The notes below the pieces were generated by a model. The model searched no databases. It worked only from the letters and a program-made list of their open reading frames with translations, and was not told where the DNA came from. Shown one piece after another: positions 4,535-41,437 of a stretch of 43,571 nucleotides of DNA. This DNA is from a virus (Duplodnaviria; Caudoviricetes), in IMG/VR virus record IMGVR_UViG_3300033513_000021, positions 1 to 43,571 of that record; one strand, given 5' to 3'. A program made the position numbers and the translations under genes. How positions within the stretch are numbered: position 1 is the stretch's first letter; every line of letters begins with the position of its first letter.

Positions 4535-4701
4535 GATTTCCTCGGCAGCGCTTCCTGCCGCTCGACGATGACGTCCGGAAGTTCCCGCGCGATCGCGGCG
4601 CGGAGCTCCTCATCCCGGTATTGCGCGTCGCTCAGATAGAGATGCAATCCGTCGATGATGGTGGCCCCTCGCAGCTTTTCGCTCCAGTGGGGATCGCTCA
4701 T
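4531..4701 (-). CDS. Hypothetical protein (56 aa, MSDPHWSEKL...)
   Basis: Manually translated; ATGA overlaps at both ends. Confidence 0.5.
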   Translation of the reverse strand: MSDPHWSEKLRGATIIDGLHLYLSDAQYRDEELRAAIARELPDVIVERQEALPRKS

Positions 4702-4955
4702 CCTTCCTCTCCCGGCAAGAGTTCACGCCATTCATCATCAGGACAAACACAGATAAACGTGCCTCCGGCGTGCATCACCATATCGCCAATCTGGTACGTC
4801 TTCCCCTGAACCCATTTGTCAAACGCATAACAGTCCGTGATCGATGCCATCGACGGCGAAGCTCCATAGGCAGCAATCTGCTCCACAGGAATGCCGACGG
4901 CGAGCGCCCCGACCGCAGCCGCGCTGCCGAGCAGGAACTGGCGACGTCCGATCAT
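4698..4955 (-). CDS. Small protein with twin-arginine-like N-terminus and CBM5/12-like C-terminal motif
   Basis: GRRQFLLGSAAAVGALA followed later by WVQGKTYQIGDMVMHAGGTFIC. Confidence 0.6.
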   Translation of the reverse strand: MIGRRQFLLGSAAAVGALAVGIPVEQIAAYGASPSMASITDCYAFDKWVQGKTYQIGDMVMHAGGTFICVCPDDEWRELLPGEEG

Positions 4956-5512: not shown

Positions 5513-6763
5513 GCCGGCAAGTTAGCATGAATTTGTTCCGCCGCAATGTGGCAGATCGGCAACGGTGCAAAAGCCCAATTGCGGCCCGTCCCGACGGCTT
5601 GACGAGATGCCGAGCGAAAGGTTTGACCGCGAGCGGGAACGGTCCAAGGCACCTGCCGTAAATGCAGCGATGTGCCTTATCCTGGGTCTAACGGCACACC
5701 AACACCCTCTGACCCTGGACGGGGCATTCCCAGGAAGGGAACTCGCTACAAATGCAGGAACGGGGCCACCCGCACGCTACGGCAATGCTGAGCGGCCCCG
5801 CCAGAAACTACAAATGTGCTGCGATTTGCCAGGACAGAAACAGCCACCCTCCAAGCCACTACAGATTAGTAGTGCTACTCAGCACAGTCAATGTGCAAAA
5901 TTATCGTCTAAAGTAGATTACATTTCAATAGCTTATTGATGTTTTGCCAAAAACGGGCTCAAATTATGTACGCGGCTATGCATCGGAAATTTCCGGAAAA
6001 ATCCGGATGAGTTGATTTATAAGTCAACAGCAGGACTAACGTGCTGTTTATGCAACACTATTTGCCAGGACCGGCGCGAAAGTGGATTGAGATATCGGAA
6101 AATCGGAGTGGCAGATTTTTCCCCCACCGGCCCCTCATCTGAAAAAGGGGACCCAACGGTTTGTTCTAAACCGTTTGCATATGAGTAATATGCAGCAAGA
6201 TCAACACGTTGCTGGATTGCATGGAGCTTGGCTGCTCAAGCGTGCTGCATTTAACCTGCATCTGTTCCGAGATGTTCGTTTGTGCGCAAATGATGCCGGT
6301 TAGCGCATGTTTGTGCATAATGAGATCATTCCGCACCCTTTTCCTACTCTAATTCCGCTTATCTTTTGTGTTCGTAATCGGTGCATGTCTGTGCAATCTG
6401 GTGCATATCCGTAGCTCATTACAGCAGCTTATGCAGGATCATTACGCCTGCTTATCCCTCATCATCGCTGCTTATCGGCAGTCCATCTGCATGGCTGCTC
6501 GGTCGCCGGCTTGCTGGTGTCGCTGCCGAGCTCGTCGCTGCTTGTGAGGCTTGCGCTTGTTGCGCTCACATCCTTGCGCGTTGCGCTTCGTCGTGGTCCT
6601 CGGCGGCGCTGCCGCCTGTGGACGGTCTTCTTCCTTATCGGAAGAAGGCGTGTGCGCGGGCGCGATGCGGGACGCGCGAGGACAGTCGATATTTTTTATT
6701 TCGGCCGCAACGCACAGGCTCAAATCCCTTGTAATCGCAAAACAGCTGTTTTACGTTTGTCAA
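5513..6763. other. ~1.25-kb non-coding region at the late/early divergence; candidate packaging/terminus region
   Basis: No credible ORF; lower GC; several palindromes (6011-6028, 6155-6175, 6176-6194); 12-bp direct repeat ATTTGCCAGGAC (5824, 6060). Confidence 0.55.
6705..6715 (-). promoter_or_regulatory. Putative late promoter element GTGCGTTGCGG (copy 2, pointing toward TerS)
   Basis: 11-bp match to the other copies. Confidence 0.6.
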
Positions 6764-19326: not shown

Positions 19327-20322
19327 CTAGTATTTGAGCGTGAAGCTTACGAGAGCCGCATTGCCCATGTGCACCGTCGCGGGGCCTACCGACAATCCAT
19401 TGCTCTGCATGACCCACTGCGCGGCCATATCGGCAACGACGCCGTTGCTGAGGCGGCTTTCCAGACCGATGCCGATGCCGGGGGCAAACAGCCATTGCTG
19501 GTTCTGGTCGAGACCGAATTGAGCGCTCACGTCCTGCTCGTGCGCGGACACAAACAGGAACGGATAGCTCGGGCCTTGGGTAACGCCGGCGGGGAGAGCA
19601 GGTAGCGACGGCACTGAGAGGCCGCTTGAGAAGCCGGGGAACATATTGAGCATCGACGAGATCGGGCTGCCGAAGCCGACGCGCTGCTCGAAGTGAGCTG
19701 GTCCGGTCATCGAGAAACCGTTCTGGTTTCCGTTGATGTTCGCCCAATCGAAGTTGCCCTCGACAAACCAGAAATTGCCTGGGGTGGTGCCGATCGGGCA
19801 GCCGTAGCCGACGGTCACGCCCACATCGCCCTGGATGACTGAGGCGCCGGGAGGGCCGCCGTCCACTGAGCCAGCCGATCCCATGGTGTTGAGCCCGAAG
19901 TAAGGGCCGCAACCGCCGCTGACATAGCCGGTCAGGAGATTCGGGGGCGCCTTGAGCACTGGCGCGGCCAGATCGGCAGCTCGCGCACCAGGCGCGAGGA
20001 TCATCAGCAGCAGCCCAGCCAGGATGAAGATCGCGATCGCAGAAGTCGAGGAGCGTTTCACATTAGCCTCCGGTAGTTTTGCGGGCGCACCTGGCCCGAG
20101 GGGAAAGCTCGCCAGCGCGGCCGGCGTGCTCTTGGACGGAATTGCATGCAGCACGCCGTTGACCGCGTTGCCGACGGTCATCAGCATATAGGCCACGGCC
20201 AGGATGATCGCCGTTGCGTGTGCGCCAAAAACGGTGGTGAATTGATCGCTAAAGCCGCCGAGCACGCCGATCACGGCGAGCCCGATGCTCATGTACATGC
20301 CGACACGCGGGTCGATGGTCAT
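19327..20322 (-). CDS. Holin-like 2-TM domain fused to signal peptide plus Omp25/RopB-like outer-membrane beta-barrel; in-frame internal GTG start at 20061
   Basis: Two TM helices; linker; MKRSSTSAIAIFILAGLLLMILAPGARA|ADLAAPVLKAPP; amphipathic beta strands; C-terminal VSFTLKY; GGAGG-5 nt-GTG at 20061. Confidence 0.75.
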   Translation of the reverse strand: MTIDPRVGMYMSIGLAVIGVLGGFSDQFTTVFGAHATAIILAVAYMLMTVGNAVNGVLHAIPSKSTPAALASFPLGPGAPAKLPEANVKRSSTSAIAIFILAGLLLMILAPGARAADLAAPVLKAPPNLLTGYVSGGCGPYFGLNTMGSAGSVDGGPPGASVIQGDVGVTVGYGCPIGTTPGNFWFVEGNFDWANINGNQNGFSMTGPAHFEQRVGFGSPISSMLNMFPGFSSGLSVPSLPALPAGVTQGPSYPFLFVSAHEQDVSAQFGLDQNQQWLFAPGIGIGLESRLSNGVVADMAAQWVMQSNGLSVGPATVHMGNAALVSFTLKY

Positions 20323-20891
20323 TTTGCTTCTCCGATGGGTTCGCTGGTAATGCGCTGGATATTGAGCAGCAACCCGGCGCACCCGAGCTGGCTGTCGATG
20401 ACATCGGGGTCGTAGTGATGATCTCGCGTGAACTTGCCTGATCTGTAAACGTCAGTGCCAGACCAGATATATGGGCTCGGAACGCCGCGCCAGAAATAGC
20501 CGAGGCCGTTGTAGCGCTCAAGCAACGTCAGCGTGCCACCGATCGACCAATCGGTCCATTTAGCCGCATAAGGCGAGCAGTTGACCAGGGCGTCGTATCC
20601 GGCCTCTTGCCATGACTTGAACGGCCCGCGGCCGGCTGGTTCATGGACCGAGACATGATGCCAGGAATCGCCCTGCGCAATGCTTGCGTCCCAATTTTGG
20701 CTCGCCTCGCGCTCATGGATCACGGCGATGACATACCATGGCACTTCGGTCGCGTCCGAAAGTTCCTGATATTGAGCGCGTGCTTGGTCGGCGCATAGCC
20801 GGAGTGCCACGGTGCCGAAACCGACGCCGGTCACATGCGCTGTGGCCCAGCGTTTGGCATTGGCTTCGATGAGTTGTGAGAAATCTATCAT
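20319..20891 (-). CDS. Endolysin (lysozyme-like, COG5526-type)
   Basis: VPWYVIAVIHEREAS...GRGPF.SW...LERYNGLGY...SPYIWSGT..Y..GKF..D...D.QLGCAGLL. Confidence 0.9.
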   Translation of the reverse strand: MIDFSQLIEANAKRWATAHVTGVGFGTVALRLCADQARAQYQELSDATEVPWYVIAVIHEREASQNWDASIAQGDSWHHVSVHEPAGRGPFKSWQEAGYDALVNCSPYAAKWTDWSIGGTLTLLERYNGLGYFWRGVPSPYIWSGTDVYRSGKFTRDHHYDPDVIDSQLGCAGLLLNIQRITSEPIGEAK

Positions 20892-20901
20892 TCGACGCCT
20901 T

Positions 20902-21141
20902 TCATAGCCCAAAAGTGTGCCAAAAAAGCCAATTGCCTAGACGGCAGCGACCATCGGCTTGTGGCAGCCAATGCCCAACGATTTTCCCCCCTTCATAAGG
21001 CCAAAGTGCTACGCATTCGTTTCCGCTTCGCGCGATGATATAATCCCCGTGTCGGTAGTTCGCAAAAAGACAACCAGCCGCGAATGACGCGAGCATCATT
21101 GCGAACGCCCCGGAAATCATTGCGAGATTACGGAGGCCCAT
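20902..21141 (-). CDS. Small membrane/exported hypothetical protein
   Basis: Hydrophobic N-terminus (AMMLASFAAGCLF); low GC like the adjacent fibre tip; start uncertain. Confidence 0.45.
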   Translation of the reverse strand: MGLRNLAMISGAFAMMLASFAAGCLFANYRHGDYIIARSGNECVALWPYEGGKIVGHWLPQADGRCRLGNWLFWHTFGL

Positions 21142-23206
21142 TAGACGTTACCGTTACCTTTGTCCCCGGAGTTCCGGCGGTTATATTAGTTGCATTTGTG
21201 ACGGTATTAAACGCAACATAGCCGTGGTCATCGTCTGTTTGGGTCACGATGCCGTTCGTCACCGTCCCCGCATCGGTGCAGTTATTGGTGGTGATACTAA
21301 ATGTAGAAACGCCGTCAATTTGGATACAACTGCCGGCATTTGTCCCGCGAATGACGTTGTTTGAAACCACAAGGTTGTAAATCCATACCGTGGGCCCCGA
21401 GATTGCCTGCGTCTCAAAGAAGCTGCTGGCGGACCCCCCTCCACCTTCATTTCCGGACACTATGACGTTTATAAGTGTGGAGTCTGTTGTAGTAGATGCG
21501 TCAGGCTGAATGAGAACGCAGATCGTTCCGCATCCCTCTATGGAATTTCCCTGTATTTGTAAATCGCTCATGGTGTGGTGAGACAGCAACGGCTTGGCAA
21601 ATATGCCAAAATCGTATTGATTGAATTTGTTGTTTGTAATTTTCCAGCCGCCACCGCTTATTAAGGAAAATCCAGTTCCGCCAACAACGGTCTGTAGCAA
21701 AAAATTATGATCGAACCAATTATCCCCGGCGTCTGGATTTACCGGAGATTCAGAGATTACGCATGTTGAGCAATCGTAGAAAAAGCTATCTGTAATGCGT
21801 GTGCCGCCTGCATTGTATAAGTGAATAGGGGTGGCACCTTGCGCAAAAGTTACAGTCCTGATCTCTGTTCGCTGCGGCCCATTGGTGGCATTACCGAGAG
21901 AAAGACAAACTCCAGTTGAAGCGTTGCAAGAAATCTTGAATGTCTTGAACGATAATATGGCGTTATTCGTCGTATCGGAAATGCCGTCTCCGGAAAAAGA
22001 CAGCTCCGAACCCTCGCGCGATATTCCCTCCATGGAAAGTTGCGTGATAGAGCCTAGTGACAGCGCGGACGTGGCATTGAAATTGCCAATAGGAATTATG
22101 GCCTTTCCAGACGCCGCTCCGGCTGCTGTAATCCAGTTCGATTCGGCCGTTGAATTATCGGTTACTCCGTCGCCGACGCCACCAAAATCGTCAAGCCAGA
22201 ATTGCAAATGCGAGGTGCATTTCCATCCGGTGCTTGCTCGCGTCCAAGTCTGTCCTGTCGTGGATGAACACACATTATCAAACCATGCAGAAGCAGCAGT
22301 CGGAGCAGACGCCCCGCCAGAGCCCGGAAATACTGGAATCTGATTCGCCGTAGCCGCTGATTGATCGCCGCCGAGACCGCCATTCGCCAATGGCAATGTG
22401 CCGCTGACGCCGGTGCCTAGCGGAAGTCCTGTGGCATTGCCCAGCGAACCGCTCGACGGCGTGCCGAGGGCGCCGCCATTGATGACAGGGGAACCAGCCG
22501 TGCCGACATTGACACCAAGGGCCGTGGCGACCCCGGTTCCTAGCCCGGAGACGCCAGTAGAGATTGGCAATCCTGTGGCATTGGTCATCGTACCGCTCGA
22601 CGGCGTGCCGAGCGCACCGCCGTTGATTACGGGAGAGCCTGCGGTTCCTACGTTGATGCCCAGCGCCGTGGCAACATTGGCACCTAATCCGGATACGCCC
22701 GTCGATATAGGAAGCCCTGTAGCGTTGGTAAGGACGCCGGCGGATGGTGTCCCAAGATTAGGGGTTATGAAAGTCGGAGACGTTTGCAGCAGGATAACAT
22801 TGCCGGTTCCGCTAAATGCACTGACTGAATTGCCATTGACCTTCCAGACGTTCCCGGTGCCGGCGGTGTCGAATGTTTTGTTGGTGAAAACGTCCGTGGT
22901 CGCCTTGCCGACAAGTGTGTCAGTCAAATCTGGCAGTGTCAGTATCTGTGTGCCAAGCGCGCCTGTCGGCGGCTGCAGCGTAATCGATCCACTCGTCGTA
23001 TTGATGAATCCGATTGAATTGACGGCGGAAAGAATAACATCTCCCAACTGTGTCAGAGGAACGGCGTTCGGCGGACCTGGGTTGTTATTGCCAATTCTAC
23101 CTAGAACCGTATTCGGCGGGATGTACGGATAAACCTGCGCCTGCGCGATTGTCGCGCAAACGACGTAAGAGATCGCGGCGGCAAAAATCCGAGCTAGATT
23201 GCGCAT
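21128..23206 (-). CDS. Tail fibre/tailspike with C-terminal right-handed beta-helix (pectate-lyase-3-like) and N-terminal signal peptide
   Basis: DDFGGVGDGVTDNSTA beta-helix start; N/I-rich rungs; G/T/S-rich shaft; N-terminus MRNLARIFAAAISYVVCATIAQA|QVYP. Confidence 0.8.
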   Translation of the reverse strand: MRNLARIFAAAISYVVCATIAQAQVYPYIPPNTVLGRIGNNNPGPPNAVPLTQLGDVILSAVNSIGFINTTSGSITLQPPTGALGTQILTLPDLTDTLVGKATTDVFTNKTFDTAGTGNVWKVNGNSVSAFSGTGNVILLQTSPTFITPNLGTPSAGVLTNATGLPISTGVSGLGANVATALGINVGTAGSPVINGGALGTPSSGTMTNATGLPISTGVSGLGTGVATALGVNVGTAGSPVINGGALGTPSSGSLGNATGLPLGTGVSGTLPLANGGLGGDQSAATANQIPVFPGSGGASAPTAASAWFDNVCSSTTGQTWTRASTGWKCTSHLQFWLDDFGGVGDGVTDNSTAESNWITAAGAASGKAIIPIGNFNATSALSLGSITQLSMEGISREGSELSFSGDGISDTTNNAILSFKTFKISCNASTGVCLSLGNATNGPQRTEIRTVTFAQGATPIHLYNAGGTRITDSFFYDCSTCVISESPVNPDAGDNWFDHNFLLQTVVGGTGFSLISGGGWKITNNKFNQYDFGIFAKPLLSHHTMSDLQIQGNSIEGCGTICVLIQPDASTTTDSTLINVIVSGNEGGGGSASSFFETQAISGPTVWIYNLVVSNNVIRGTNAGSCIQIDGVSTFSITTNNCTDAGTVTNGIVTQTDDDHGYVAFNTVTNATNITAGTPGTKVTVTSNGPP
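22395..22760 (-). repeat. ~2.5 tandem 48-aa (144-nt) repeats in the fibre shaft
   Basis: TPSxGxxxNATGLPISTGVSGLGxxVATALGxNVGTAGSPVINGGALG; the DNA anchor GCTCGACGGCGTGCCGAG occurs at 22451 and 22595. Confidence 0.85.
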
Positions 23207-23229
23207 AGGTTTACCATCATTTGATTCCT

Positions 23230-23448
23230 CTATTTCTGTGACGGCGGGATCGGTTCGTTTTTCTTGATCTGCGCAGCCCGAAGCGCCGCCTCAGCCTTAC
23301 CGGCGCGCTCCTTCCAGTAGTTGGCGATCTGCACCAGCGCCACGATCTCCTGCGCCGCGGCCATGCCATTCGCGTTTGCATCGGGGATATTCTGCGCCGC
23401 CGCAGAAAACGGCAACGAGATAAGTGTAACGATCATCAGCTTTTTCAT
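23230..23448 (-). CDS. Small exported protein (signal peptide plus short helix)
   Basis: MKKLMIVTLISLPFSAAA|QNIP; AGGAG RBS. Confidence 0.7.
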   Translation of the reverse strand: MKKLMIVTLISLPFSAAAQNIPDANANGMAAAQEIVALVQIANYWKERAGKAEAALRAAQIKKNEPIPPSQK

Positions 23449-23457
23449 GACATTCTC

Positions 23458-24660
23458 CTAGAAGCAGGCCCAGCCGCCGCCGTTGAAGAAGACAGGAAAA
23501 ACGCCGCTGCCGCCTGCCGTTGGCGGCGCGTTCGCCGTGCAAGCGCTGGCGTCGTTCACGAATGCGATATTGCCGCCGCCCGTCGTTCCAGCCGGCAACG
23601 ACGATATCGCAACTGGCTTGTAATAAATAACGCCGGCCGCACCCGCAAAAATGACAACGCTATCGGTCAAGTCGGCTTGGTTATTACGAAAGAAAAACGC
23701 GCCGGTCTGACCAGCCAGCGTGCCGCCGGTGAAGATGATGCCGTGATCCGAGCCGCCGCCGGTGATGTAGAACGCATCGCTAAGCGATCCGGTGATACCG
23801 TAGTCGGTGTTCAGCGACGCGGTGGTCGCAAACCCGATTGCCGTTGCTTTCACCAGGCTGTTGCCGGCGAGATCGACGCCGATGCCAAACTGGCCTGAAA
23901 GCTTAATCGCCCAATCGGGGGCGTAGGGCGGATTCGACGGGCTGACTGGTGCGTTGATGAAAATGCCGTCCATCTCCGCGCCGGTGACTTCCTTATCGAG
24001 ATTGAGCGACAATCCGATATAGGGAGCGGGAACCGTATCGATCGTGGCCGTGATGGCGATGCCTTGCGAATATTGCCCATTGTGCTGAGCGATCGAGGCG
24101 CCGAAGCAATGGCTACCGCCGAACGCAGAGCTGTCGGCGAAGCTCTGGTTCGAGTCCATGTTGCATTCATAGCCGCCAAGACCACCTTTGGTTCCCGAAG
24201 GAACCGGAGAGCCAAGATCGCCGAGCTTCAAATTGTAGGCGGTGTAGAACGAGCTGGAATCGGTCAGGGAACCGAATGTGGTCTGCACCCAGACACCGAC
24301 GCGGTGGCTGTCGCTCGCGGTGGCGTTAAATATGGCGAGCGCGTTGCCGTTCAGCGTTTCCTCGCCGCTGCGGTTCGGATTGAGGTTCAGCAGCCCGGTA
24401 TCGGCGAGGTTCTTGCCAAGACCATCCGCGAAGGTCACCACGTCGTATTGCGTGGCCGAGGGGGCACCGACCGCCAAGCTGTCAAAGCCCGAGGGGATGA
24501 TCCGGGTAATCGGGATCGCCTGCGGCGGCCCCGACCCGGCGCTTCCCAGCCGCCCGAGGACGGTGTTCGCCGGAATAGTCGGGTAGACCTGGGCATTTGT
24601 TTCGACGGCCATGGCCAGGAGCGCGACCGCAACGGCGAAAAATGAGAGGGCTTTTCGCAT
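23458..24660 (-). CDS. Second fibre/spike-like beta-rich protein with N-terminal signal peptide
   Basis: MRKALSFFAVAVALLAMAVETNA|QVYP; shares its N-terminal module with 21128..23206; C-terminal AFVND...GGG...PVFFNG..W fibre-tip motif. Confidence 0.7.
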   Translation of the reverse strand: MRKALSFFAVAVALLAMAVETNAQVYPTIPANTVLGRLGSAGSGPPQAIPITRIIPSGFDSLAVGAPSATQYDVVTFADGLGKNLADTGLLNLNPNRSGEETLNGNALAIFNATASDSHRVGVWVQTTFGSLTDSSSFYTAYNLKLGDLGSPVPSGTKGGLGGYECNMDSNQSFADSSAFGGSHCFGASIAQHNGQYSQGIAITATIDTVPAPYIGLSLNLDKEVTGAEMDGIFINAPVSPSNPPYAPDWAIKLSGQFGIGVDLAGNSLVKATAIGFATTASLNTDYGITGSLSDAFYITGGGSDHGIIFTGGTLAGQTGAFFFRNNQADLTDSVVIFAGAAGVIYYKPVAISSLPAGTTGGGNIAFVNDASACTANAPPTAGGSGVFPVFFNGGGWACF

Positions 24661-24691
24661 GGTGGACTACCTTTTCGGGGCTGTTACCTAG

Positions 24692-24703
24692 CCGCAACGC
24701 ACT
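24692..24703 (-). promoter_or_regulatory. Putative late promoter element AGTGCGTTGCGG (copy 3) heading the fibre/lysis operon
   Basis: Ends 32 nt upstream of ATG 24660, which lacks a Shine-Dalgarno sequence. Confidence 0.65.
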
Positions 24704-30482: not shown

Positions 30483-30974
30483 TCACAAGAGGAAAGTGGC
30501 GAGGCCGGCGGCGAGTTTCAGGCCGGCGCTGAACAAGTCGCCCTGACCGGCAGTTTTTTCGGCCTGTTGCGCCGACTGCGCTGCTTGCGACATGTTCATG
30601 TAGGCGTCGTGCTGTTCCTGATATCCAGCTTCGGTGATGAGCCCTTGCTGACCGACTGCAGCCTTGGCGGTCGCTCCCTGCTGCGCGCTTTCCTTGAGAA
30701 TGTCGAGCGCGCTTCCGCTTGCGGCAAACCCAGCATTGGCCACTGCGGCTTCGGTTCGACCGATGCCCATATAGGTCTCGCGCTGCAACTGTTGTTCTTT
30801 GATCGCGGTCGATGTCTCCGTGTATTGCTTGTTCGTCAACGCCAAAGCGGCGGCGGCTTCGTAGTTCTGCTGCTCGAATTGCAGCGCTTGGACCTTGTAT
30901 CCGGTAGCTTCATAGGAAAAGAGATCGGATACCGCGGCCCCGAAGTCGCTGAATGTTGCTGCGCCGATGGCCAT
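30483..30974 (-). CDS. Small internal virion protein (gp14-like)
   Basis: Ala/Gln-rich with AGFAASGSALDIL motif; directly after the nozzle. Confidence 0.7.
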   Translation of the reverse strand: MAIGAATFSDFGAAVSDLFSYEATGYKVQALQFEQQNYEAAAALALTNKQYTETSTAIKEQQLQRETYMGIGRTEAAVANAGFAASGSALDILKESAQQGATAKAAVGQQGLITEAGYQEQHDAYMNMSQAAQSAQQAEKTAGQGDLFSAGLKLAAGLATFLL

Positions 30975-33900
30975 CAGACATCCGCCGTTTCACGCGCGGC
31001 GCCGAACGCTTGCACATTGAGGATTTGCGGGCGCGAGATGCGCCAGCATGGCATGGCGTCGAAATCGTAGCTGCTTTCGAATTGATCGCGGAATACGCCG
31101 CTGAATTGCGTATCGACCGTCAGTGTCGTTACCCCGTCGGCTTGCTTGAAAATCGCCGATTCGAGCGTATTGAAATCCGTCCCGAGATGCAGGCCGCCGC
31201 CGCCGCCGACCGTGCCCTCAAAAAGACCCATGAGGTAATGATCCCGCGCCAGCTTGCCGAACGCTGGGCCATTGCGCGATCCGGTGTCCGCCGGAGCGAT
31301 GGGACGCAGCAATTGACCGTCCGAATTATAGGTGAAACCGACGAACATCGGCATCCGGCCGTTGAACATCTGCGCGCCGTTTGCAGTCGTTCCGCTTTCG
31401 ACAAAAGCCAGCGTGAATAGCCCTTGGTCGTAACGGTTCGTCGCCGTAGGGAAGCTTCCCAGAGCACTGCCGATGCCGTCTCCGTACGGCACCTGGATGC
31501 AGCCTCCGGACACCTTATAGTCGCCGCAGTCGAGACCGCCGAGCCACGCCGTGACGGTCTTTCCCTCCAGTGGCCATAGACCGTTGAGCTGTAGGCCGCC
31601 ATATGGAAATCCGGTGCTGATATCGACCGCCGCGGTCGAGGTCGGAACGATGGCGCAATCCAAATAGCAGGCTTCCGACTGCAGCGATCCCTCGTCCAGG
31701 ATATCGCCGAGAATTTCGACGTATACCGCGGCGCCGTCCGTCGTCACCAAGGTCAACGCATCGAGATTGCCGTTGATCGACGATCCCGTGCAGATCGATT
31801 CGACCGTGCGCCCCGAACCAAGGGAATGTTCATGCCAGGCATTTATTGTCGGGCCGGAGGACGTCATCAACGTGTCGCGGATATAGGTGCAGCCAATGAG
31901 CGAGCCGTTGACGCGGCCCCAGATGGTTGAGGTGAATTCCTGCTGGTACGCCAATTCCTGCAGATTACCCTGCGTCAACTTCTTGGCGTCCTTGATTAGG
32001 TTCGGCGCCGTAAACTTTCCGGAAAACACATCGGCAAAATATTCTACGACCTCGCGCTGATATTTCTGAATGAAAGAGATGGTGTGGTCGGTACGCTGCG
32101 GCTCCGCGTCATAGCCGCCGATACGGGTTGTCATGCGCGCATCGATGTTCGTCGGCGTGAAGCCGCCGCCGCCTGGCGGGAAGATTAGACCCTCGCGTGA
32201 CTTGGTGCCGAAGATGATGCCCTGCTGGTCTGGCAGCATCCACAGGAACGGATTCGATTCCGGCAGGTCCATGCGGTAGCTGATGGCCGAGGAATCGAGC
32301 ACATTGCCATATTGATCGGTAGGCGCGAAATTCGCCGTCACGCCGGCGCTGTCGACGGTCACGCCGTTCGACACGCAGGCGTCGAAACGGTTCGGCAGGT
32401 AGCCGCCGATCCACAGCCGCCCATCGGTCCAGGTCCCCACAGTGGGCCATCCGGTGCTGTCGGAATAGAGTCCGAGCCGCCAATCCTTGATGGTCGAGGA
32501 GTAGAGCAGCGCCGGCCCCGAAAGCGAAACCGTGATGCCGTTGTCGCTTGTCGCCGAACCGGGAACCGCGACGAATTCGACCTGGCAGGCGTAGAGCGCC
32601 TGTATCGTCGTATTCACCTTGCCGATGATGCCGGAGCCAGAGCCGGTGATGCTCGGCGTTGGTCCTGTGCCGGGTGTGCTGACGACGGATTGCCCGATCA
32701 CCACCCACAAGTAGGAATAGGCGTTGGTCGTATCCGAGGACGGGATCGTTGCCGCAGAAGATCCGCCGACCGAGAAGGTGTCGCCGGTCCCATCGCCGTT
32801 ACTCGTCTGCTGGCTTTCGAAGACGGCCGAGCCGAGCAAGATTCCGTCGGTCTCGAACGTCGGCGCCACGTTAGAGCCGTACAGGCTCGCGGTGCCGACG
32901 ATCTGATAGTCCTCGTTGTTTCCGTTTGCCTGGAAATAGCTGATGCCGCGGTCGGTCGAAGGGAAAATCGTCGCCGACTGCACCTTGTAGCTCGTAGTCA
33001 CACAACCGCTGTAATTCTGCCCAATCGACATCGATACCGAGCCGGAAAAATAAGCGGTATCCGGAGCGGACGAAAGCACGATCGAGGCACAGGAACCGCT
33101 GTCCTTGCTGAGCACTCCATCGAAGGCATCCGCCAAATTCACCGGAGCGTCGCCGATATGAGCAATCCCCGTCGGATTTGCCGGAATGAAATTCAGCAGA
33201 GCGGTGATCTTGCCCCAGGTCCAGAGCGTAGGGGAATTATTGCCTCCTTGCTGGAGCAATTGCCAATTGGTCGTATCGGTGCCCGGCGTGTTTCCTACGT
33301 TGCTGCCGACGAGAGACGACCAATAGGTCGTCGCGTTTGGATCGCCGCTCGGGTTGTAGGAAACGATGGCGCCGGACGCATAGGTCGTAGACGACGAATA
33401 ATCTGGAGGCTCGGAAAAAAGCCGCACGAGACGGCCGATGTCACTCTGTAGGAAGCCGACCCCGCCGTTGATCGCAGCATTGCCGTTCGTCGCCGCCCAA
33501 TCGGCGGGATGCGTGTCCGGCTGGTTGCCTACATTCTCATCGACGAGAGATTCATAGTTGTGCGAGGAATAGCTCACAAAATCCCCGGCCGCATAGGATT
33601 TGGCCGAATCATAGGCCGGGAACGAGATCGTAAGGCTGATAATGCCGGTCAAGGCGCTGGCCGTAAGCTGCGTCCCGTTCGTGAGCGGATCGAGATAAGG
33701 GCCGTCCTCGAAATTTGCCGCCGCGAATTTGAAGGTCGCAAACTGCGCCGCGTTCGGCTGCATCGTGACCGAAACGGCATAGGGCTTATAGCTGCCCTGC
33801 AGCAGGAACGAAACCGGCGTTCCGTTGGCGTCGCTCTGCACCGCGCGCAATGATTGCCAACTTGTACCGGCATAGGGCGTGGTAAAGGTCCTGGTGCGGT

Positions 33901-34444
33901 TGAATTGCGCGCCGACTGCCACAGGATTTAGCGTCGAACCGTCAATCGGATCGCCGGTAATCGTGTCAGCAAGCGAGAACCTTTGCGCGTTGATCCGCGT
34001 CAGCGTCAGCAGCCGGTTCTCGATCAATGGGTTATTGGTCGCGCCGACGACGAAACCCTGGGCTCCATTGATCCATGAGACCGGCGTCGCCAGCAGCATG
34101 ACCGCGGGGTTGTCGGTTGTGATATTTCCGACATGGACGGAATCGTTCAGTGTCACGGGATCGAGGCCGGAGAGGAACTGTAGCGCCCCGTCGGTGAAAA
34201 CCATGGTATAGGGCGGCGTTTCCTCCTCGAAGTCGAATTTGATCACACGGCCCGGATCGCCCCCGCGCGTCGGCATTGCCCATCGCGTGCCAGGGCGCCG
34301 TACCCAATTCTCGGTCTCCAGGATCATGCCGTTCAGACAAACATTCATCGCCTGCGCGTAACGGCGATCATGGAATCTGCCCTGCGCGAATTGAGACCAG
34401 AGGCCGCCGGCGAAGGTCGATTGGACATAGGTTGCGTTCGGCAT
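30974..34444 (-). CDS. Tail nozzle (tubular protein B) with inserted carbohydrate-binding-like domains
   Basis: QSTFAGGLWS...RRPGT N-terminus, WPTVGTW.DGRLW, LAYQQE...AWHEH, YLDC, VGFTYNS motifs; 1156 aa. Confidence 0.85.
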   Translation of the reverse strand: MPNATYVQSTFAGGLWSQFAQGRFHDRRYAQAMNVCLNGMILETENWVRRPGTRWAMPTRGGDPGRVIKFDFEEETPPYTMVFTDGALQFLSGLDPVTLNDSVHVGNITTDNPAVMLLATPVSWINGAQGFVVGATNNPLIENRLLTLTRINAQRFSLADTITGDPIDGSTLNPVAVGAQFNRTRTFTTPYAGTSWQSLRAVQSDANGTPVSFLLQGSYKPYAVSVTMQPNAAQFATFKFAAANFEDGPYLDPLTNGTQLTASALTGIISLTISFPAYDSAKSYAAGDFVSYSSHNYESLVDENVGNQPDTHPADWAATNGNAAINGGVGFLQSDIGRLVRLFSEPPDYSSSTTYASGAIVSYNPSGDPNATTYWSSLVGSNVGNTPGTDTTNWQLLQQGGNNSPTLWTWGKITALLNFIPANPTGIAHIGDAPVNLADAFDGVLSKDSGSCASIVLSSAPDTAYFSGSVSMSIGQNYSGCVTTSYKVQSATIFPSTDRGISYFQANGNNEDYQIVGTASLYGSNVAPTFETDGILLGSAVFESQQTSNGDGTGDTFSVGGSSAATIPSSDTTNAYSYLWVVIGQSVVSTPGTGPTPSITGSGSGIIGKVNTTIQALYACQVEFVAVPGSATSDNGITVSLSGPALLYSSTIKDWRLGLYSDSTGWPTVGTWTDGRLWIGGYLPNRFDACVSNGVTVDSAGVTANFAPTDQYGNVLDSSAISYRMDLPESNPFLWMLPDQQGIIFGTKSREGLIFPPGGGGFTPTNIDARMTTRIGGYDAEPQRTDHTISFIQKYQREVVEYFADVFSGKFTAPNLIKDAKKLTQGNLQELAYQQEFTSTIWGRVNGSLIGCTYIRDTLMTSSGPTINAWHEHSLGSGRTVESICTGSSINGNLDALTLVTTDGAAVYVEILGDILDEGSLQSEACYLDCAIVPTSTAAVDISTGFPYGGLQLNGLWPLEGKTVTAWLGGLDCGDYKVSGGCIQVPYGDGIGSALGSFPTATNRYDQGLFTLAFVESGTTANGAQMFNGRMPMFVGFTYNSDGQLLRPIAPADTGSRNGPAFGKLARDHYLMGLFEGTVGGGGGLHLGTDFNTLESAIFKQADGVTTLTVDTQFSGVFRDQFESSYDFDAMPCWRISRPQILNVQAFGAARETADV

Positions 34445-34447
34445 GAA

Positions 34448-36118
34448 TCAAATCCGGCAGGCAATTAGGTCATCGAGCGGTGGTTCCTCAATTCCAGCCT
34501 CGATGCCTCCAATCAGGATCGCCTCGCTTCTGAATTTCTCATACTCGCCGGCGATTGTGTGTTTCTTTTCGGAGGATTGCGTCAATGGCTCGCAGACGGC
34601 CAAGCCGATCGAGCAGCCGAGCAGCTCGCAGAAATTGTCGTCGAAGTCGGGAACGTATTGCACGTCGGCGACGAAACGGAATACCAGCGGGCCGCCGTCG
34701 AGCGACATCAGGAAATTGCCCTCGAAAAGCCAGTCGTCGGCCTGCCGGTTTCCCGGGGCACCGAGCCAGGAGAACACGCCGGCCTTCGGGTCCTGTGGAC
34801 AGCGGCGCAGGTAGTTGGCCGGCAACCGGAAGACGTTCTTGGTAGCCGCGTCCGAAGCGGGGCCGCAGCCAATCGGGTACGTGATGTTGAAACCGGCGAG
34901 GGCGACCCCGTTCGGGAATGCGGCGCCGCCTATCTGCATCCATTGTGAGTTGCCGCCGCCGGAAGTAAAGGTCGATGTCCACGGTGCGGTAAGACCTTGC
35001 GTCCAGTAGGTCTGATTGAGGCCATTCGCTGGGTCCTTGTTCAGGTTTCCGGCCGCGCTGGTTGCCGTGTAGATGAAGTTGTCGCTGCCGACGACTGTTT
35101 GCCCGACTGTGTAGGTCGTAAGGGCATCCCACGCGGCCGGAACATCTGCCGGGCTGTTGCCCAAATTAAGGTCGATTAGGCTTTGCCATAGAGCGCCGCC
35201 GGTAACGACAGCCCAATAGGTCGATGCTGCGGCGTTTGGGAAATTTCCGCTGTTCGCGTTTTGCAGCGACACATAGGCCGCAGCGTTGAATATCACGAAC
35301 GATCCCGTGGAATAGACGCTTTCGATATTCCACTCGCCGATGGGCGTCGTCGTCAGTTGAGGCGGCGAGGTAAAAGAGCTGGCCGGGACCTGCTGCGTCG
35401 TCAAGGTAACGACCGGCATCAGCGCCCAGCTCGCGCCATTGAGCGGTGGGATTAGGTTGAGATTGCCGGCAACCAGCGAAACATAGACGTTTCCGTCGGT
35501 GTAGAGGACGCCCGCGCCCGCGGCGTAGGTGGTGAGGCTAGACCAGGCCGGAAACTGCTGGACGACATTGTCCTTGAAATACGTGGTGTCGACGCTCCAC
35601 TGGTTCGGTAGCGCCGGATGCAACTGATTGCCGTTCACCAGCGAGGCGAAGACATTGTAGGTGCCGTTTCCTGCCGCGGTGTAGGTCAATTCACCGGAGT
35701 AATAATTCTGGCTCGAATCGTAGAGCGAGACCGAGAGCGGTCCGAAATAGGGCACCCAGGCCGAGAAGATCACGCCGGGCTCGTTGTTGAGGTTGTCGGC
35801 CAGGATCGATTGCCAATAGGTGCCGCTGGCATCGGTGACGATCGAGCCGACAAAATAAGTGACGTAAGGCGAATAGAGCGTCGGCACCAGCCGCAGGGTA
35901 TTGGTGTCAAGCGGACGCAGCGCCGTCCGGCGAGTGGCGAAGGTCCAGATGTTGCGCCGCAGTTCGGCCCGCCGCAGCTTCCCGTAGCACGCCAGAAGCT
36001 GGGCTGCGGCCTTGGTGCTGCCGGGGAATGCCGAACTTGGGGCTGCCGCGCCGGTGGGGGCGCCAACGTGCTGCAGCGCACGCACGCCAATGTCGAACGG
36101 CGAGTTGAATTCTGGCAT
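34448..36118 (-). CDS. Tail adaptor (tubular protein A) with large CBM-like repeat insertion
   Basis: DIGVRALQHVG...RRAELRRNIWTFATRR N-part and FRLPANYLR...FDDNFCELL...CEPLTQS C-part flank about six (W/Y)xxxxxYxxGxxV repeats. Confidence 0.8.
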   Translation of the reverse strand: MPEFNSPFDIGVRALQHVGAPTGAAAPSSAFPGSTKAAAQLLACYGKLRRAELRRNIWTFATRRTALRPLDTNTLRLVPTLYSPYVTYFVGSIVTDASGTYWQSILADNLNNEPGVIFSAWVPYFGPLSVSLYDSSQNYYSGELTYTAAGNGTYNVFASLVNGNQLHPALPNQWSVDTTYFKDNVVQQFPAWSSLTTYAAGAGVLYTDGNVYVSLVAGNLNLIPPLNGASWALMPVVTLTTQQVPASSFTSPPQLTTTPIGEWNIESVYSTGSFVIFNAAAYVSLQNANSGNFPNAAASTYWAVVTGGALWQSLIDLNLGNSPADVPAAWDALTTYTVGQTVVGSDNFIYTATSAAGNLNKDPANGLNQTYWTQGLTAPWTSTFTSGGGNSQWMQIGGAAFPNGVALAGFNITYPIGCGPASDAATKNVFRLPANYLRRCPQDPKAGVFSWLGAPGNRQADDWLFEGNFLMSLDGGPLVFRFVADVQYVPDFDDNFCELLGCSIGLAVCEPLTQSSEKKHTIAGEYEKFRSEAILIGGIEAGIEEPPLDDLIACRI

Positions 36119-36146: not shown

Positions 36147-36158
36147 CCGCAACGCACT
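36147..36158 (-). promoter_or_regulatory. Putative late promoter element AGTGCGTTGCGG (copy 4) heading the tail operon
   Basis: Ends 29 nt upstream of ATG 36118. Confidence 0.65.
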
Positions 36159-36160
36159 TG

Positions 36161-37528
36161 CTAGGCCGCTGTTTTGGCTCTTTCGGCGGTCAATTTGCTG
36201 AAATCATCCATCAGGCGCCCTAGCGGCTCGCGCCAGTCGAACGGATGCGGCTGCCGGTAGATGCGCATGCTGTCGTACCAGCAGCTCGGCCCGGTCTCCT
36301 TGCGCCATGGCCAGAGTGCGTCGAACCGCACCAGATTCCAGACCGGCTTGCCCATGGCGCCGGCGAGGTGGGCGACCGCAGTGTCGACCGTCACCACCAG
36401 GTCCAGATGGTCGATGATAAACGCCGTGTCGGCAAAATCCGTGATGCCGCGCATGGGGTCGGCTACGCCGAGCTCGCGGAGTTGATCGGCGTCACCGTGG
36501 GTCTGCTGCAGGCAAACCAGCTTGACGCCAGGCCGAGCCAGTGGAGCAAGCTGTTCAAATGACAGACTTTTCTGCTTCGCCGTCTCGGCAACCGCCGGCT
36601 GGTCCGGCCGTTTCCCGCTGGCCCAGCAGATACCGACCTTGAGCGCGCCGTCGGGAAAACCGAGGCGAAAACCTTCCTCGCGCGCGCTGAGATAGCCGCC
36701 CTTGAGCGGCACGGTCTCCGGGCTCATGCCGACGATGCCTGGCACGTCGAGCAGTGCACACATAAAGTCCGGCTGCCAGGGCGGCGGATCGTATTGGTTG
36801 ATCACCGCGTCGGCATGGGCGAAGCTGCGCGCCAGCCGGAACATCGGTGGTCGCACCGAAAGGATCACTCTGGCGCCTAGGTCCTTGACGGTCTTGGCAA
36901 ACCGGAGCGATTGGATTTCGTCACCGAAGCCCTGCTCGACGTAGAGCAGGATGGTCTTGCCCTCGATCGGCTCGCCACGCCAAGCCGGATAAGAGAAGCG
37001 CGGCCGCGGCGGGAAACCTGGCGCGTTGAAACGGTGACGATAGGCGGCAAATCCTTCGGTCCACTCGTCGTTTCCGATCAGGGCGATGCCGAGATTGGCG
37101 TTAAGCTGGGCATGACCGGGATCGAATTTGGCCGCCGCCTTGTAGTGCGCAATGGCCCCCTCGACCCGCATCATGGAGCAGAGCGTATTGCCGTAGTTGT
37201 AATGTCCGTTGAAACTCGGCTCAATGGCGAGCGAGCGCTGAAAACTCTCCTCGCTTTCCTTGAACATCCGCGCCGAGGAGCAGGCGATGCCGCGGTTGCA
37301 CCAGATGTCGTAGCGCTCCGGCGCTATCTGCACCGCCATCCCGTAGTGCAGCACGGCATTGAAATGCCGGCCTAGTTCGGCTTCCATTTGCCCGCGCATG
37401 GCCCAGGCGTCGGCGTGTCGCGGCTGCAGGCGGATGACGTCGGTCAAGATGTCGAGCGCCTGCGCCTTGCGGCCGGCGCGGATGGCCATCACCGCCTGCT
37501 CAAAGGCGAATTCTGCGTAGTTCGGCAT
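36161..37528 (-). CDS. TPR-repeat plus GT-B (GT9-like) glycosyltransferase, FlmG/FlbA-like architecture
   Basis: About 4-5 TPRs, then WRGEPIEGKTILLYVEQGFGDEIQ...VGICWA...DFADTAFII.HLDLVVTVDTAVAHLAGAMGKPVW...WY.SMRIYRQ. Confidence 0.88.
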   Translation of the reverse strand: MPNYAEFAFEQAVMAIRAGRKAQALDILTDVIRLQPRHADAWAMRGQMEAELGRHFNAVLHYGMAVQIAPERYDIWCNRGIACSSARMFKESEESFQRSLAIEPSFNGHYNYGNTLCSMMRVEGAIAHYKAAAKFDPGHAQLNANLGIALIGNDEWTEGFAAYRHRFNAPGFPPRPRFSYPAWRGEPIEGKTILLYVEQGFGDEIQSLRFAKTVKDLGARVILSVRPPMFRLARSFAHADAVINQYDPPPWQPDFMCALLDVPGIVGMSPETVPLKGGYLSAREEGFRLGFPDGALKVGICWASGKRPDQPAVAETAKQKSLSFEQLAPLARPGVKLVCLQQTHGDADQLRELGVADPMRGITDFADTAFIIDHLDLVVTVDTAVAHLAGAMGKPVWNLVRFDALWPWRKETGPSCWYDSMRIYRQPHPFDWREPLGRLMDDFSKLTAERAKTAA

Positions 37529-37661: not shown

Positions 37662-38480
37662 TCATTGCTGCACATAAGTCAGATTTCCGCTCACGTCCCC
37701 AGCGCCCGATTGGAAAAGGCAAAGATCATGAGCCGCGGTCGTCGTGCGAGCCACGGTTGAGCCACCGTTGCCGTAAGTAAATCCTCCATTAGCGGCTAAC
37801 GACAATCCATGTGTGGCCGTTGTCGCTCCGATTACAGCTTCCGCTGCAGTGTCGCATTCAGTCGTGGTCTTCGTTCCATCGGCAATCGATACGACCGTCG
37901 CTCCCGACGCGATAAGAGAGAGCGAGCAAACATAGATTTGCTGGCTTGAAGCCAAAGAAACAAGCTTTACCGTCGTTGTGCCAGTCATTGAAATCGGAAC
38001 ATTGATTTTCGTAGCCTGAGCACAGGGATCGCTCGATGTATGGCCGATGACATTCGTACCGGCCGCTATGGCTTTTACGTTGACCCAAGCACCGTCAGTC
38101 TTATCGCCGTACCAGCGATCATATCCGGTGCCGTTCCACAGCCACGGCGCTACGGCGCCAGTATTGTTGCCGTTTACGCCGTCGCCGAGCGCGATCGCCG
38201 CCTGCCAGCTTTTGAGATTGGTGCCGTCATTGAGGCCGATGGCAAGGCCGGCAGAAGGAAACGCCGCGTCAAAATCCTGAAAAGTTACTGTAGCGGAAAC
38301 GGTCACGTCGGCACAAAGCGCGCCGGTCAGATCGACGGTGAGCGGAGCATTGGCGCCTGCGGTCCAGATGCTTGAGCCTGGGCAGCTCGCGACAACGAGC
38401 GCGTTGCGTACCTGAGCGTTTGCCTGTGGAGAAAGCGCGAGCCCCAGCGCGAGGCCGAGGAGCCAGACAATCCGCTTCAT
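37662..38480 (-). CDS. Beta-rich putative virion/decoration protein with N-terminal signal peptide
   Basis: GGAGG RBS; MKRIVWLLGLALGLALSPQANA|QVRN; Thr/Gly/Ala-rich; located in the head gene cluster. Confidence 0.7.
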   Translation of the reverse strand: MKRIVWLLGLALGLALSPQANAQVRNALVVASCPGSSIWTAGANAPLTVDLTGALCADVTVSATVTFQDFDAAFPSAGLAIGLNDGTNLKSWQAAIALGDGVNGNNTGAVAPWLWNGTGYDRWYGDKTDGAWVNVKAIAAGTNVIGHTSSDPCAQATKINVPISMTGTTTVKLVSLASSQQIYVCSLSLIASGATVVSIADGTKTTTECDTAAEAVIGATTATHGLSLAANGGFTYGNGGSTVARTTTAAHDLCLFQSGAGDVSGNLTYVQQ

Positions 38481-40551: not shown

Positions 40552-40731
40552 CTACTTTTTCCGCATGGCCGAAAGGCGCAGGCCGAGACGTCCGGCAGCG
40601 GCCAGCGATTTGTTCGAACTGTGACTGGCCCTGACTTCCGCCTCATGCACCGAGATGCCCTCGCGCGCGGCAAGCCGCTTCATGCGACCTTTGTGCTTTA
40701 TTGCGCCGCCAATCCACTTCCGTTTAGCCAT
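40552..40731 (-). CDS. Small basic protein (59 aa, MAKRKWIGGAIKHKGRM...)
   Basis: Manually translated; KWI.GAIKH.G motif seen in small phage late proteins. Confidence 0.65.
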   Translation of the reverse strand: MAKRKWIGGAIKHKGRMKRLAAREGISVHEAEVRASHSSNKSLAAAGRLGLRLSAMRKK

Positions 40732-41255
40732 AGCTTCTTTCCCTTCGAGAGAATGAAGTTTCTTAGGTGCGAATGAGCCTTAGCGTGGCAAGGAACGCAG
40801 AGAACTTCGATGTTTTCCACATCTATCCTGCCAATAAGGTCTTCTGTAAACCCGCGGACATGGTGACCTTGAAGACCATCCTGGCTCCCACACCGATCGC
40901 ATCTACCACGCTCCCGAACAATCTTGGATGTGAGCGCCTTAACCGCGTATGGTCGTTCAGAATGGCCGCCTTTCCAATTTTGGTGATTGGGACCTCTTTT
41001 TGATCTGCCAACTCCACGTGCACGACATGCCCTGGAACAGAATCGGCCATTCCCGCCTCGACCTTTCCTGATCTGAAACGCAATTCCGCATTCTTCGCAC
41101 TGGTATTCGAGCATCGTCACGCCGCCACACCATTGGCGCTGACGCGCACATTTTTTCGAGCAGAATCTTCCTGACTTGCCGCCGCGCAACCATGCGGAAA
41201 ACGTGCGGAATTCACTGCCGCACGTCTCGCAATTCCTGGTTACGTTTCCCCTCAA
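40698..41255 (-). CDS. HNH homing endonuclease with tandem Zn-finger repeats
   Basis: CETCG..FCSKKC, CEECG..FCSRAC, NWKGG, CDRCG...GHH...NIEVLCVPCHAKAH; likely TTG start overlapping the upstream TGA; lower GC. Confidence 0.85.
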   Translation of the reverse strand: MRGNVTRNCETCGSEFRTFSAWLRGGKSGRFCSKKCARQRQWCGGVTMLEYQCEECGIAFQIRKGRGGNGRFCSRACRARGVGRSKRGPNHQNWKGGHSERPYAVKALTSKIVRERGRCDRCGSQDGLQGHHVRGFTEDLIGRIDVENIEVLCVPCHAKAHSHLRNFILSKGKKLWLNGSGLAAQ

Positions 41256-41437
41256 GCCCTTTTCCTCGCGTGCTTCGCCTTCACGCGCCCCTCTTTGTAG
41301 TGGCCACCGTGCGCCTGCTCGTTGCGCTTTTCGCTCAAGAAAATCGCGACGGCCTGCTTTTGGCTCGTGACCTTCTGGCCCGACGAAGACCGGAGCTTGC
41401 CGGTCTTCCACTTGTGCATCACCTGGCTACTTGGCAT
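41252..41437 (-). CDS. Small basic protein, DUF6496-like
   Basis: VMHKWKTGKLRSSSGQKVTSQKQAVAIFLSE. Confidence 0.7.
   Translation of the reverse strand: MPSSQVMHKWKTGKLRSSSGQKVTSQKQAVAIFLSEKRNEQAHGGHYKEGRVKAKHARKRA

Follow-up and report, generated by a model that had tools for sequence, protein, structure and literature searches.

Podovirus fibres and tailspikes such as T7 gp17, P22 gp9 and the Carin-1 depolymerase fibres carry an N-terminal particle-binding part, and to our knowledge tailed-phage particles are taken to be complete in the cytoplasm ahead of lysis. In filamentous phages, the receptor-binding virion protein pIII is Sec-exported, contains disulfides, is membrane-anchored and is added during non-lytic extrusion. 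Here we analysed IMGVR_UViG_3300033513_000021, a 43.6-kb virus record that is 97% complete; its whole stretch of 43,571 nucleotides (nt) is called the window below. The window is a near-complete temperate podovirus whose fibre and tailspike genes open with Sec-type leaders. On the sequence evidence, we consider it probable that exported, disulfide-folded fibres dock at lysis onto particles built in the cytoplasm. The features that carry this argument are as follows (aa, amino acids; Cys, cysteine).

23458..24660, minus strand: 400-aa fibre-like protein with a Sec-type leader (1-23), a conserved N-terminal motif, a beta-rich body and 4 Cys
24472..24591, minus strand: putative tail anchor P..TV.GR.G.G.GP.QAIP at the mature N-terminus of the 400-aa protein (alignment; hidden Markov model, HMM)
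23230..23448, minus strand: 72-aa helix-rich protein, predicted to be exported, no Cys
21128..23206, minus strand: 692-aa tailspike/fibre with a leader (1-23), the putative anchor motif (24-63), a shaft segment (~65-160), three 48-residue repeats, a predicted beta-helix (330-692) and 10 mature Cys
37662..38480, minus strand: 272-aa protein of the post-capsid cluster, predicted to be exported, with 6 Cys and a probable C-terminal beta-sandwich
34448..36118, minus strand: tail adaptor (phrog_394, by PHROG match) with inserted CBM-like repeats, leaderless, candidate docking site
30974..34444, minus strand: tail nozzle (phrog_376; weak match to the 8CK1 nozzle) with a CBM5/12 insert, leaderless, candidate docking site
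2561-2569, 6707-6715, 24694-24702 and 36149-36157, minus strand: copies of GTGCGTTGC

The locus resembles podovirus fibres and tailspikes in that the fibre gene lies past the internal virion proteins, a conserved N-terminus is followed by a variable C-terminal receptor-binding part, the 692-aa protein has shaft repeats and a beta-helix, and the adaptor and nozzle are T7-like. It differs in its putatively cleavable Sec-type leader, paired Cys and own upstream motif, and in an N-terminal motif that is unrelated to any solved chain. Podovirus fibres are leaderless and assembled in the cytoplasm, whereas the window fibres carry leaders and are predicted to be exported. Like pIII, these are putative receptor-binding proteins with an export-type leader and cysteine pairs; unlike pIII, they lack a membrane anchor (no hydrophobic segment in the mature chains) and belong to a tailed double-stranded DNA phage with lysis genes. 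They are also unlike trimeric autotransporter or Eib-type adhesins, since there is no C-terminal barrel anchor (no Pfam match, E up to 1) and the C-termini vary freely.

Docking of podovirus fibres on the adaptor or nozzle is described in the excerpted text of PMC13730344. The Bdellovibrio MAT fibres are phage-fibre-like trimers with a signal peptide that serve as chromosomal surface adhesins, as described in the excerpts of PMC10769870; therefore, phage-type fibre folds can be made through export. Going by that partial description, MAT fibres are set apart by a conserved ~130-aa domain past the signal peptide, as against a conserved part of ~35 aa here, and they are not virion parts.

Leader-bearing tail-region proteins also occur in cultured tailed phages. 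Cellulophaga phage phi10:1 gp091-094 and phi18:3 gp087 (KC821618, KC821620) pass our leader test and are annotated as structural with experimental tandem mass spectrometry (MS/MS). Among the other MS/MS-annotated genes translated (phi18:3 gp085 and gp086 left out), a leader was found in 0 of 3 for phi10:1 and 0 of 9 for phi18:3. These phages differ from the window in their Bacteroidota hosts, different N-termini and few Cys, and no paper commenting on their leaders was found in the literature searched. One further candidate was rejected: the A1002 gp41 fibre lacks its first ~30 residues according to excerpts of PMC13730344, but KPP25 ORF007, of the same length and genus, is leaderless. For the processed capsid esterase of phi24B, no leader is mentioned in the part of 10.64898/2026.04.10.717836 available.

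No description of exported tail fibres was found in the literature searched, which comprised partial texts including PMC13001222, PMC6102473, PMC4899797, PMC12014285, PMC5723332, PMC13730344 and 10.64898/2026.04.10.717836, most subscription journals and supplements lying outside it. Because each known system tested has a defining feature that the proteins lack, the proposed assembly route would be categorically new, whereas its parts (fibres and Sec leaders) are ordinary.

Leaders and starts of four late genes

Sec/signal peptidase I-type leaders open the four late genes starting at 24660, 23448, 23206 and 38480, and the basic, hydrophobic and cleavage-site segments that the preliminary description read at these N-termini are present in every one. 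The 400-aa product of the 24660 gene begins with MRKALSFFAVAVALLAMAVETNA, followed at the site by Q; the other three products have 72 (23448), 692 (23206) and 272 (38480) aa. All four leaders combine a basic n-region, an uncharged h-region (best 8-residue hydropathy 2.1-3.0) and an A-x-A-type site followed by Gln, and none contains an RR pair. For the 400-aa protein, our heuristic prefers cleavage after residue 18, whereas homology (Gln at +1) favours 23. There is no lipobox at any cleavage site; the 272-aa protein has a lipobox-like VASC 11 residues past its site, which is absent from the homologue L168 (G and L numbers are our handles for genomes and loci). The mature parts have no strongly hydrophobic 19-mer (maximum mean hydropathy 0.9-1.9).

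The heuristic is our own and not SignalP. None of 226 core virion or packaging homologues passed it, nor did more than 51 of 5565 N-termini after shuffling and 1 of 7104 windows taken from inside fibres. Applied to the 174 ATG starts with a Shine-Dalgarno site on both window strands, it flagged seven: the four reported genes, one Tat-type open reading frame (ORF; 4955) and two probably spurious ORFs.

True starts downstream of the hydrophobic segments, an objection that the preliminary description had raised against itself, find little room in these genes. In the 692- and 272-aa genes, no ATG, GTG or TTG lies in frame between Met1 and the conserved region, and the single internal ATG of the 400-aa gene (Met17) still lies within the leader. 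A reading in which the leaders are decorative or miscalled, with working fibres made in the cytoplasm from downstream starts, can point to calls that did not come from SignalP and to relatives: of ten leader-bearing genes checked, six have at least one in-frame start codon before or in the conserved motif, nearly all lacking a ribosome site. However, the other four, the 692-aa gene among them, have no such codon, the distance from an upstream motif to the leader Met is kept, and cysteine parity tracks the leader. We regard this reading as very improbable.

The upstream motif, GTGCGTTGC, occurs four times in the window, all on the minus (late) strand, against a chance mean of 0.88; four copies were reached in 1 of 100 shuffles. 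The earlier remark that the fibre genes follow a late-promoter motif is thus borne out, in that the motif is real and its count above chance, and we infer that GTGCGTTGC is a late promoter element. The copy at 24694..24702 (minus strand) lies 42 nt ahead of the leader Met of the 400-aa gene and that at 36149-36157 lies 39 nt ahead of the adaptor gene. A spacing of 39-42 nt from motif to leader Met is kept in G002, G017, G018 and G023, while G001 has a variant and G012 none. The motif also precedes the adaptor genes in five genomes and an endolysin-like gene in G017, and in leader-type genomes as well as in G025, GTGCGTTGC was seen to be enriched on the late strand. Start codons 39-42 nt from GTGCGTTGC, some without ribosome sites (G018, G023), suggest messenger RNAs without an untranslated leader. 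A scan for sigma-70 promoters and terminators stayed at chance level. The start codon overlaps the preceding gene (-4 to +1) in 10 of 10 fibre genes without an export leader, whereas a gap of 41-50 nt precedes it in 6 of 7 with one. Upstream of the 692-aa gene, a strong GAGGA ribosome site belongs to an out-of-frame 8-codon ORF that overlaps the gene start (23194-23220, minus strand); this ORF may lower tailspike output or may be an assembly error.

Transcription from a separate motif could also suit fibre-derived proteins of lysogenic conversion or exclusion placed on the host envelope, of which Lom, Bor and Eib are examples. The phage has an integrase, in its leader-bearing relatives the fibre gene usually has an upstream motif to itself and does not overlap the gene before it, and an outer-membrane-protein-like gene lies within the lysis cassette. 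However, the upstream motif is the same as ahead of the adaptor gene, indicating lytic timing, the mature chains have neither a transmembrane segment nor a Pfam barrel anchor, and the phage would be left without fibres. Conversion proteins therefore seem quite improbable to us.

The 400- and 692-aa proteins match at 48% over the first 54 residues of the former and have in common a motif of ~35 residues directly past the cleavage site. In the 692-aa protein, the segment at ~65-160 matches a fibre-shaft segment in 1079 proteins, several of which carry phage fibre domains (S74, T4 gp9/10, Mtd_N; we take some of these names to fit the matched accessions). The 48-residue repeats begin at 152, 200 and 248. 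By structure-model comparison, the stretch 330-692 resembles right-handed beta-helices in predicted models, a viral tailspike cluster among them, with TM (template modelling) scores of 0.75-0.85. A single-sequence model of this region was poor, with a pLDDT (predicted local distance difference test) of 35. A shaft or beta-helix body is thus found in the 692-aa protein; for the 400-aa protein, there was no full-length homologue, and Atlas look-alikes below 0.9 are leads only. A word-indexed search with the 400-aa body or the beta-helix returned no homologue.

The 72-aa protein also had no detectable homologue; small leader-bearing genes are placed alike in G012 and G023, without detectable sequence similarity. 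By its position, it is a candidate periplasmic assembly helper. Leader-bearing homologues of the 272-aa protein occur in G001, L168 and L169, and L170 has a long protein that is similar to it at the N-terminus; this N-terminus matches leaders of ABC-binding proteins. Its model (pLDDT 45, poor) gave no Foldseek match at E 0.001 or better and weak jelly-roll-like rows that include phage cement proteins; the fold is probably a beta-sandwich, as far as so weak a model can tell, and the protein is likely a head or neck appendage.

The N-terminal motif and cysteine content among relatives

From 80 capsid relatives, 23 were taken as whole or long records and their genes called, so that 24 genomes were compared in all. 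In 19 of them, a fibre-like gene starts with the motif P..TV.GR.G.G.GP.QAIP, preceded by a leader in 7 (8 proteins) and without one in 12 (G003-G008, G010, G013-G016 and G019); the records of G022, G024 and G025 end ahead of the fibre position. To the earlier question whether homologues in related phages keep the signal peptide, the answer is yes for the first group and no for the second. An HMM built from the 12 leaderless sequences alone and run against 1113 proteins recovered all 8 leader-bearing proteins, six of them at E 5e-11 to 4e-8 and two at E 0.05, the motif of the 400-aa protein scoring E 3.4e-8.

The motif gene is the first called gene past the large internal virion protein in 16 of 19 genomes; in G002 a small ORF lies between, and in G003 and G004 the gene has another place among the late genes. 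The fibre position past the internal virion protein is occupied by the leader-bearing form in an integrated prophage of G028. The window fibres thus share with the leaderless fibres of this uncultured family the N-terminal motif, the gene position (in 10 of 12) and the capsid, adaptor and nozzle families, whereas the leaderless fibres have no leader, a lower Cys density and a start codon overlapping the preceding stop. The sequence C-terminal to the motif varies freely among relatives. Free variation behind a conserved motif is what a tail anchor with interchangeable receptor-binding parts shows; therefore, the mature N-terminus probably docks on the tail.

This bears on two earlier claims. 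That there is no T7 gp17-type anchored fibre agrees with the lack of any PHROG match for one in the window and of any tblastn match to four other phage fibre queries, but it overlooked the conserved, family-specific N-terminal motif. That the 692- and 400-aa products are the only fibre- or spike-like genes stands in so far as no other fibre gene was found, and has to be qualified by the CBM5/12-like repeats of the leaderless adaptor and nozzle.

The motif profile matched 874 cluster representatives among 1.84 billion. Among the top 150 matches, which include the window's own protein and several profile-building sequences, a leader is present in 120 and absent from 24, with 6 unclear. Gln is the +1 residue in 99 of the 120 leader-bearing matches, and in 109 the motif lies 0-6 residues from the predicted site. 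These figures count against an uncleaved leader that would tether the fibres to the inner membrane, to be collected by leaving particles, possibly with membrane. Filamentous phages do assemble from membrane-held proteins; here, A-x-A-type sites with Gln indicate cleavage, and a retained leader would block a motif so close to it, so that we give tethering scant credence. In 401 alphaproteobacterial genomes, the motif profile matched one, within the G028 prophage; therefore, the motif is not a common host module in those searched.

Leaders in the post-capsid cluster are confined to leader-type genomes (1 of 4 genes in G000, 4 of 7 in G001, 3 of 10 in G002 and 3 of 5 in G012), with none in G017, G018, G023 or any leaderless genome. 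A capsid tree (23 rows, 5 of them unlabelled; G015 omitted as its capsid gene is cut) requires 3 changes of leader state, at least 2 of them forced, and a terminase tree (20 rows) requires 2. Therefore, gain, loss or exchange of the leader state may have happened repeatedly. A single origin is rejected by the capsid tree and not by the terminase tree. A tie between leaders and the loss of lipoprotein spanins was unsupported, lipobox genes being present in both classes.

Two arrangements in other phages were observed. In L012 (30147-32900 of MW202898.1), which has a related capsid, an annotated 305-aa leaderless tail fibre precedes a long fibre-like gene in which a leader-like segment comes past an internal Met, possibly a split anchor plus an exported fibre. 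Genes of 145-148 aa in the fibre regions of G006, G014 and G016 and at L167 9714-10157 resemble by eye KPP25 ORF006, the counterpart of the A1002 chain-fibre protein gp40.

The mature 400-, 692- and 272-aa chains contain 4, 10 and 6 Cys. Among motif matches of at least 250 aa, the Cys count is even in 97 of 104 leader-bearing proteins versus 7 of 15 leaderless ones; among shaft matches, in 34 of 37 with a leader versus 43 of 82 others, many of the latter with zero. Pooled (at least 250 aa and at least 2 Cys), 128 of 138 proteins with a leader have an even count versus 19 of 43 without. Cys density among motif matches is 1.46% with a leader and 0.73% without, and in 18 relatives it separates the classes (69 in 5975 residues leader-bearing versus 41 in 7048 leaderless), whereas the adaptor has an equal density in both (1.03%). 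Post-capsid proteins have 4 Cys with a leader versus 0-1 in the leaderless counterparts. The even counts in leader-bearing homologues therefore indicate disulfide folding in the periplasm. Taken together, conserved leaders, starts fixed by a promoter-like motif and cysteine pairing strongly support the earlier proposal of export to the periplasm, which the leaders would direct through Sec, together with folding with disulfides there.

Neighbouring genes and host

Besides the fibre genes, the window encodes an integrase, a GcrA homologue, a terminase, a portal, a PF19821 major capsid protein and internal virion proteins; the head is HK97-type, and the tail has the T7-like adaptor (phrog_394) and nozzle (phrog_376). 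The capsid profile matches 7 bacterial assemblies, 5 of them labelled alphaproteobacterial. Because of these matches, the GcrA homologue and an outer-membrane-protein-like gene in the lysis region, which we take to be of a rhizobial-type family, the host is probably alphaproteobacterial, of the Hyphomicrobiales. No PDB sequence match was found for the adaptor, motif or fibre, and viral contigs searched with a stretch of the internal virion protein yielded no relatives. Nozzle length ranges from ~850 to 1480 aa among relatives, and the nozzle is in two separate pieces in G005, G007 and G013. Two further features are the following.

36161..37528, minus strand: tetratricopeptide repeat (TPR) and glycosyltransferase family 9 gene (PF01075 above cutoff), leaderless, between the 272-aa gene and the adaptor
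19327..20891, minus strand: lysis region with a putative endolysin (20319-20891) and a holin-like segment reading into an outer-membrane-protein-like ORF

The TPR-glycosyltransferase gene was called only in G000, G001, G002 and G004, and its link with leader state is weak (3 of 7 leader-bearing genomes, 1 of 12 leaderless). Its product possibly glycosylates the exported proteins or Ser/Thr-rich appendages. The virion module of G001 also holds a gene that by eye resembles a sugar-nucleotide dehydratase.

In the lysis region, the endolysin and holin labels follow position and sequence character, with no family match. The two-helix holin-like segment is in frame, without a stop, with the outer-membrane-protein-like ORF (19327-20319, minus strand). 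This ORF has its own GGAGG site, an internal GTG start (20061) and a leader, and is thus a fifth leader-bearing late product; stand-alone homologues (40% and 35%) lie among lysis-like genes in L174 and L175. Read-through might yield a spanin-like product reaching across both membranes; such a fusion was found nowhere else.

Other minus-strand genes are an HNH endonuclease between the scaffold and capsid genes (40698-41411), an endonuclease VII-like gene near the portal (1528-2010) and an 85-aa ORF with a Tat signal (TIGR01409 above cutoff) between the terminase genes (4698-4955).

A two-compartment assembly route

The preliminary description left two fates for the exported proteins: joining particles at or after lysis, or acting as soluble or surface enzymes. 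We favour joining, because the mature N-terminus is the motif that opens the leaderless fibres of sister phages at the same gene position, and because the fibre genes share an upstream motif with the adaptor gene while no other fibre gene was found. The chief rival is that free depolymerases or adhesins are released at lysis to clear capsule or biofilm for the progeny, while host recognition by the particle relies on the CBM-like inserts in adaptor and nozzle. The beta-helix does resemble polysaccharide-lyase or hydrolase folds, 11 of 62 motif-bearing proteins scanned have beta-helix or pectate-lyase-like Pfam matches, and CBM5/12-like inserts are present in both tail proteins. However, a free enzyme would need neither the motif, which leaderless fibres keep at the same gene position, nor long shaft repeats, and one leader-bearing relative (P0142) retains an S74 fibre chaperone. 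We therefore consider free release unlikely, although both fates could co-exist; the readings as conversion proteins, as uncleaved tethers or as miscalled starts are less likely still.

Several observations weigh against docking of exported fibres. The adaptor and nozzle inserts might recognise the host without fibres, and the leaders were called by our heuristic rather than by SignalP. In G009 and G011, no motif-bearing gene can be recognised. Neither solved structures nor cultured phages gave a match to the motif, so that its role as an anchor rests on position and conservation, and its family is known here from the genes of uncultured phages. Among the 18 relatives, parity does not separate the classes (even Cys counts in 8 of 11 leader-bearing versus 13 of 18 leaderless proteins, 6 of the latter with zero), the leaderless fibre of G004 holds 18 Cys, and pooled P values overstate certainty, the sequences being related and hence not independent. 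As for the Cellulophaga proteins, they are not homologous and have 0-3 Cys, and MS/MS of phage preparations can include co-purifying material.

We hypothesize that the fibre, tailspike and 272-aa genes are transcribed late, together with the tail genes. Sec would export the proteins and signal peptidase I would cut the leader, leaving an N-terminal Gln. In the periplasm, host Dsb proteins would oxidise the paired cysteines and trimers would form, perhaps aided by the 72-aa protein. Meanwhile, heads, adaptor and nozzle, all leaderless, would be built in the cytoplasm. Once the holin opens the inner membrane, the two pools could meet, and the motif would dock on the adaptor or nozzle, either as the holin acts or directly afterwards. 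Docking on the particle is proposed because of the orthology with leaderless fibres and because no other fibre gene was found.

With somewhat less assurance, we lean towards a second, two-compartment route in tailed phages, in which every appendage for host recognition would be secreted, folded oxidatively, perhaps glycosylated, and stored in the periplasm, so that the particle is armed only at lysis; a single family could gain or lose this switch, the gain taking a leader and Cys pairs on an unchanged tail anchor. The motif family is unusually testable, because the same N-terminal motif occurs with and without a leader and a leader swap would be clean. If the route is real, export of the fibre set would couple infectivity to lysis and turn the host Sec and Dsb systems into phage-assembly factors. 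Fibres would gain access to disulfide chemistry and envelope modification, and genome pipelines would be mislabelling many receptor-binding proteins as secreted host-like proteins.

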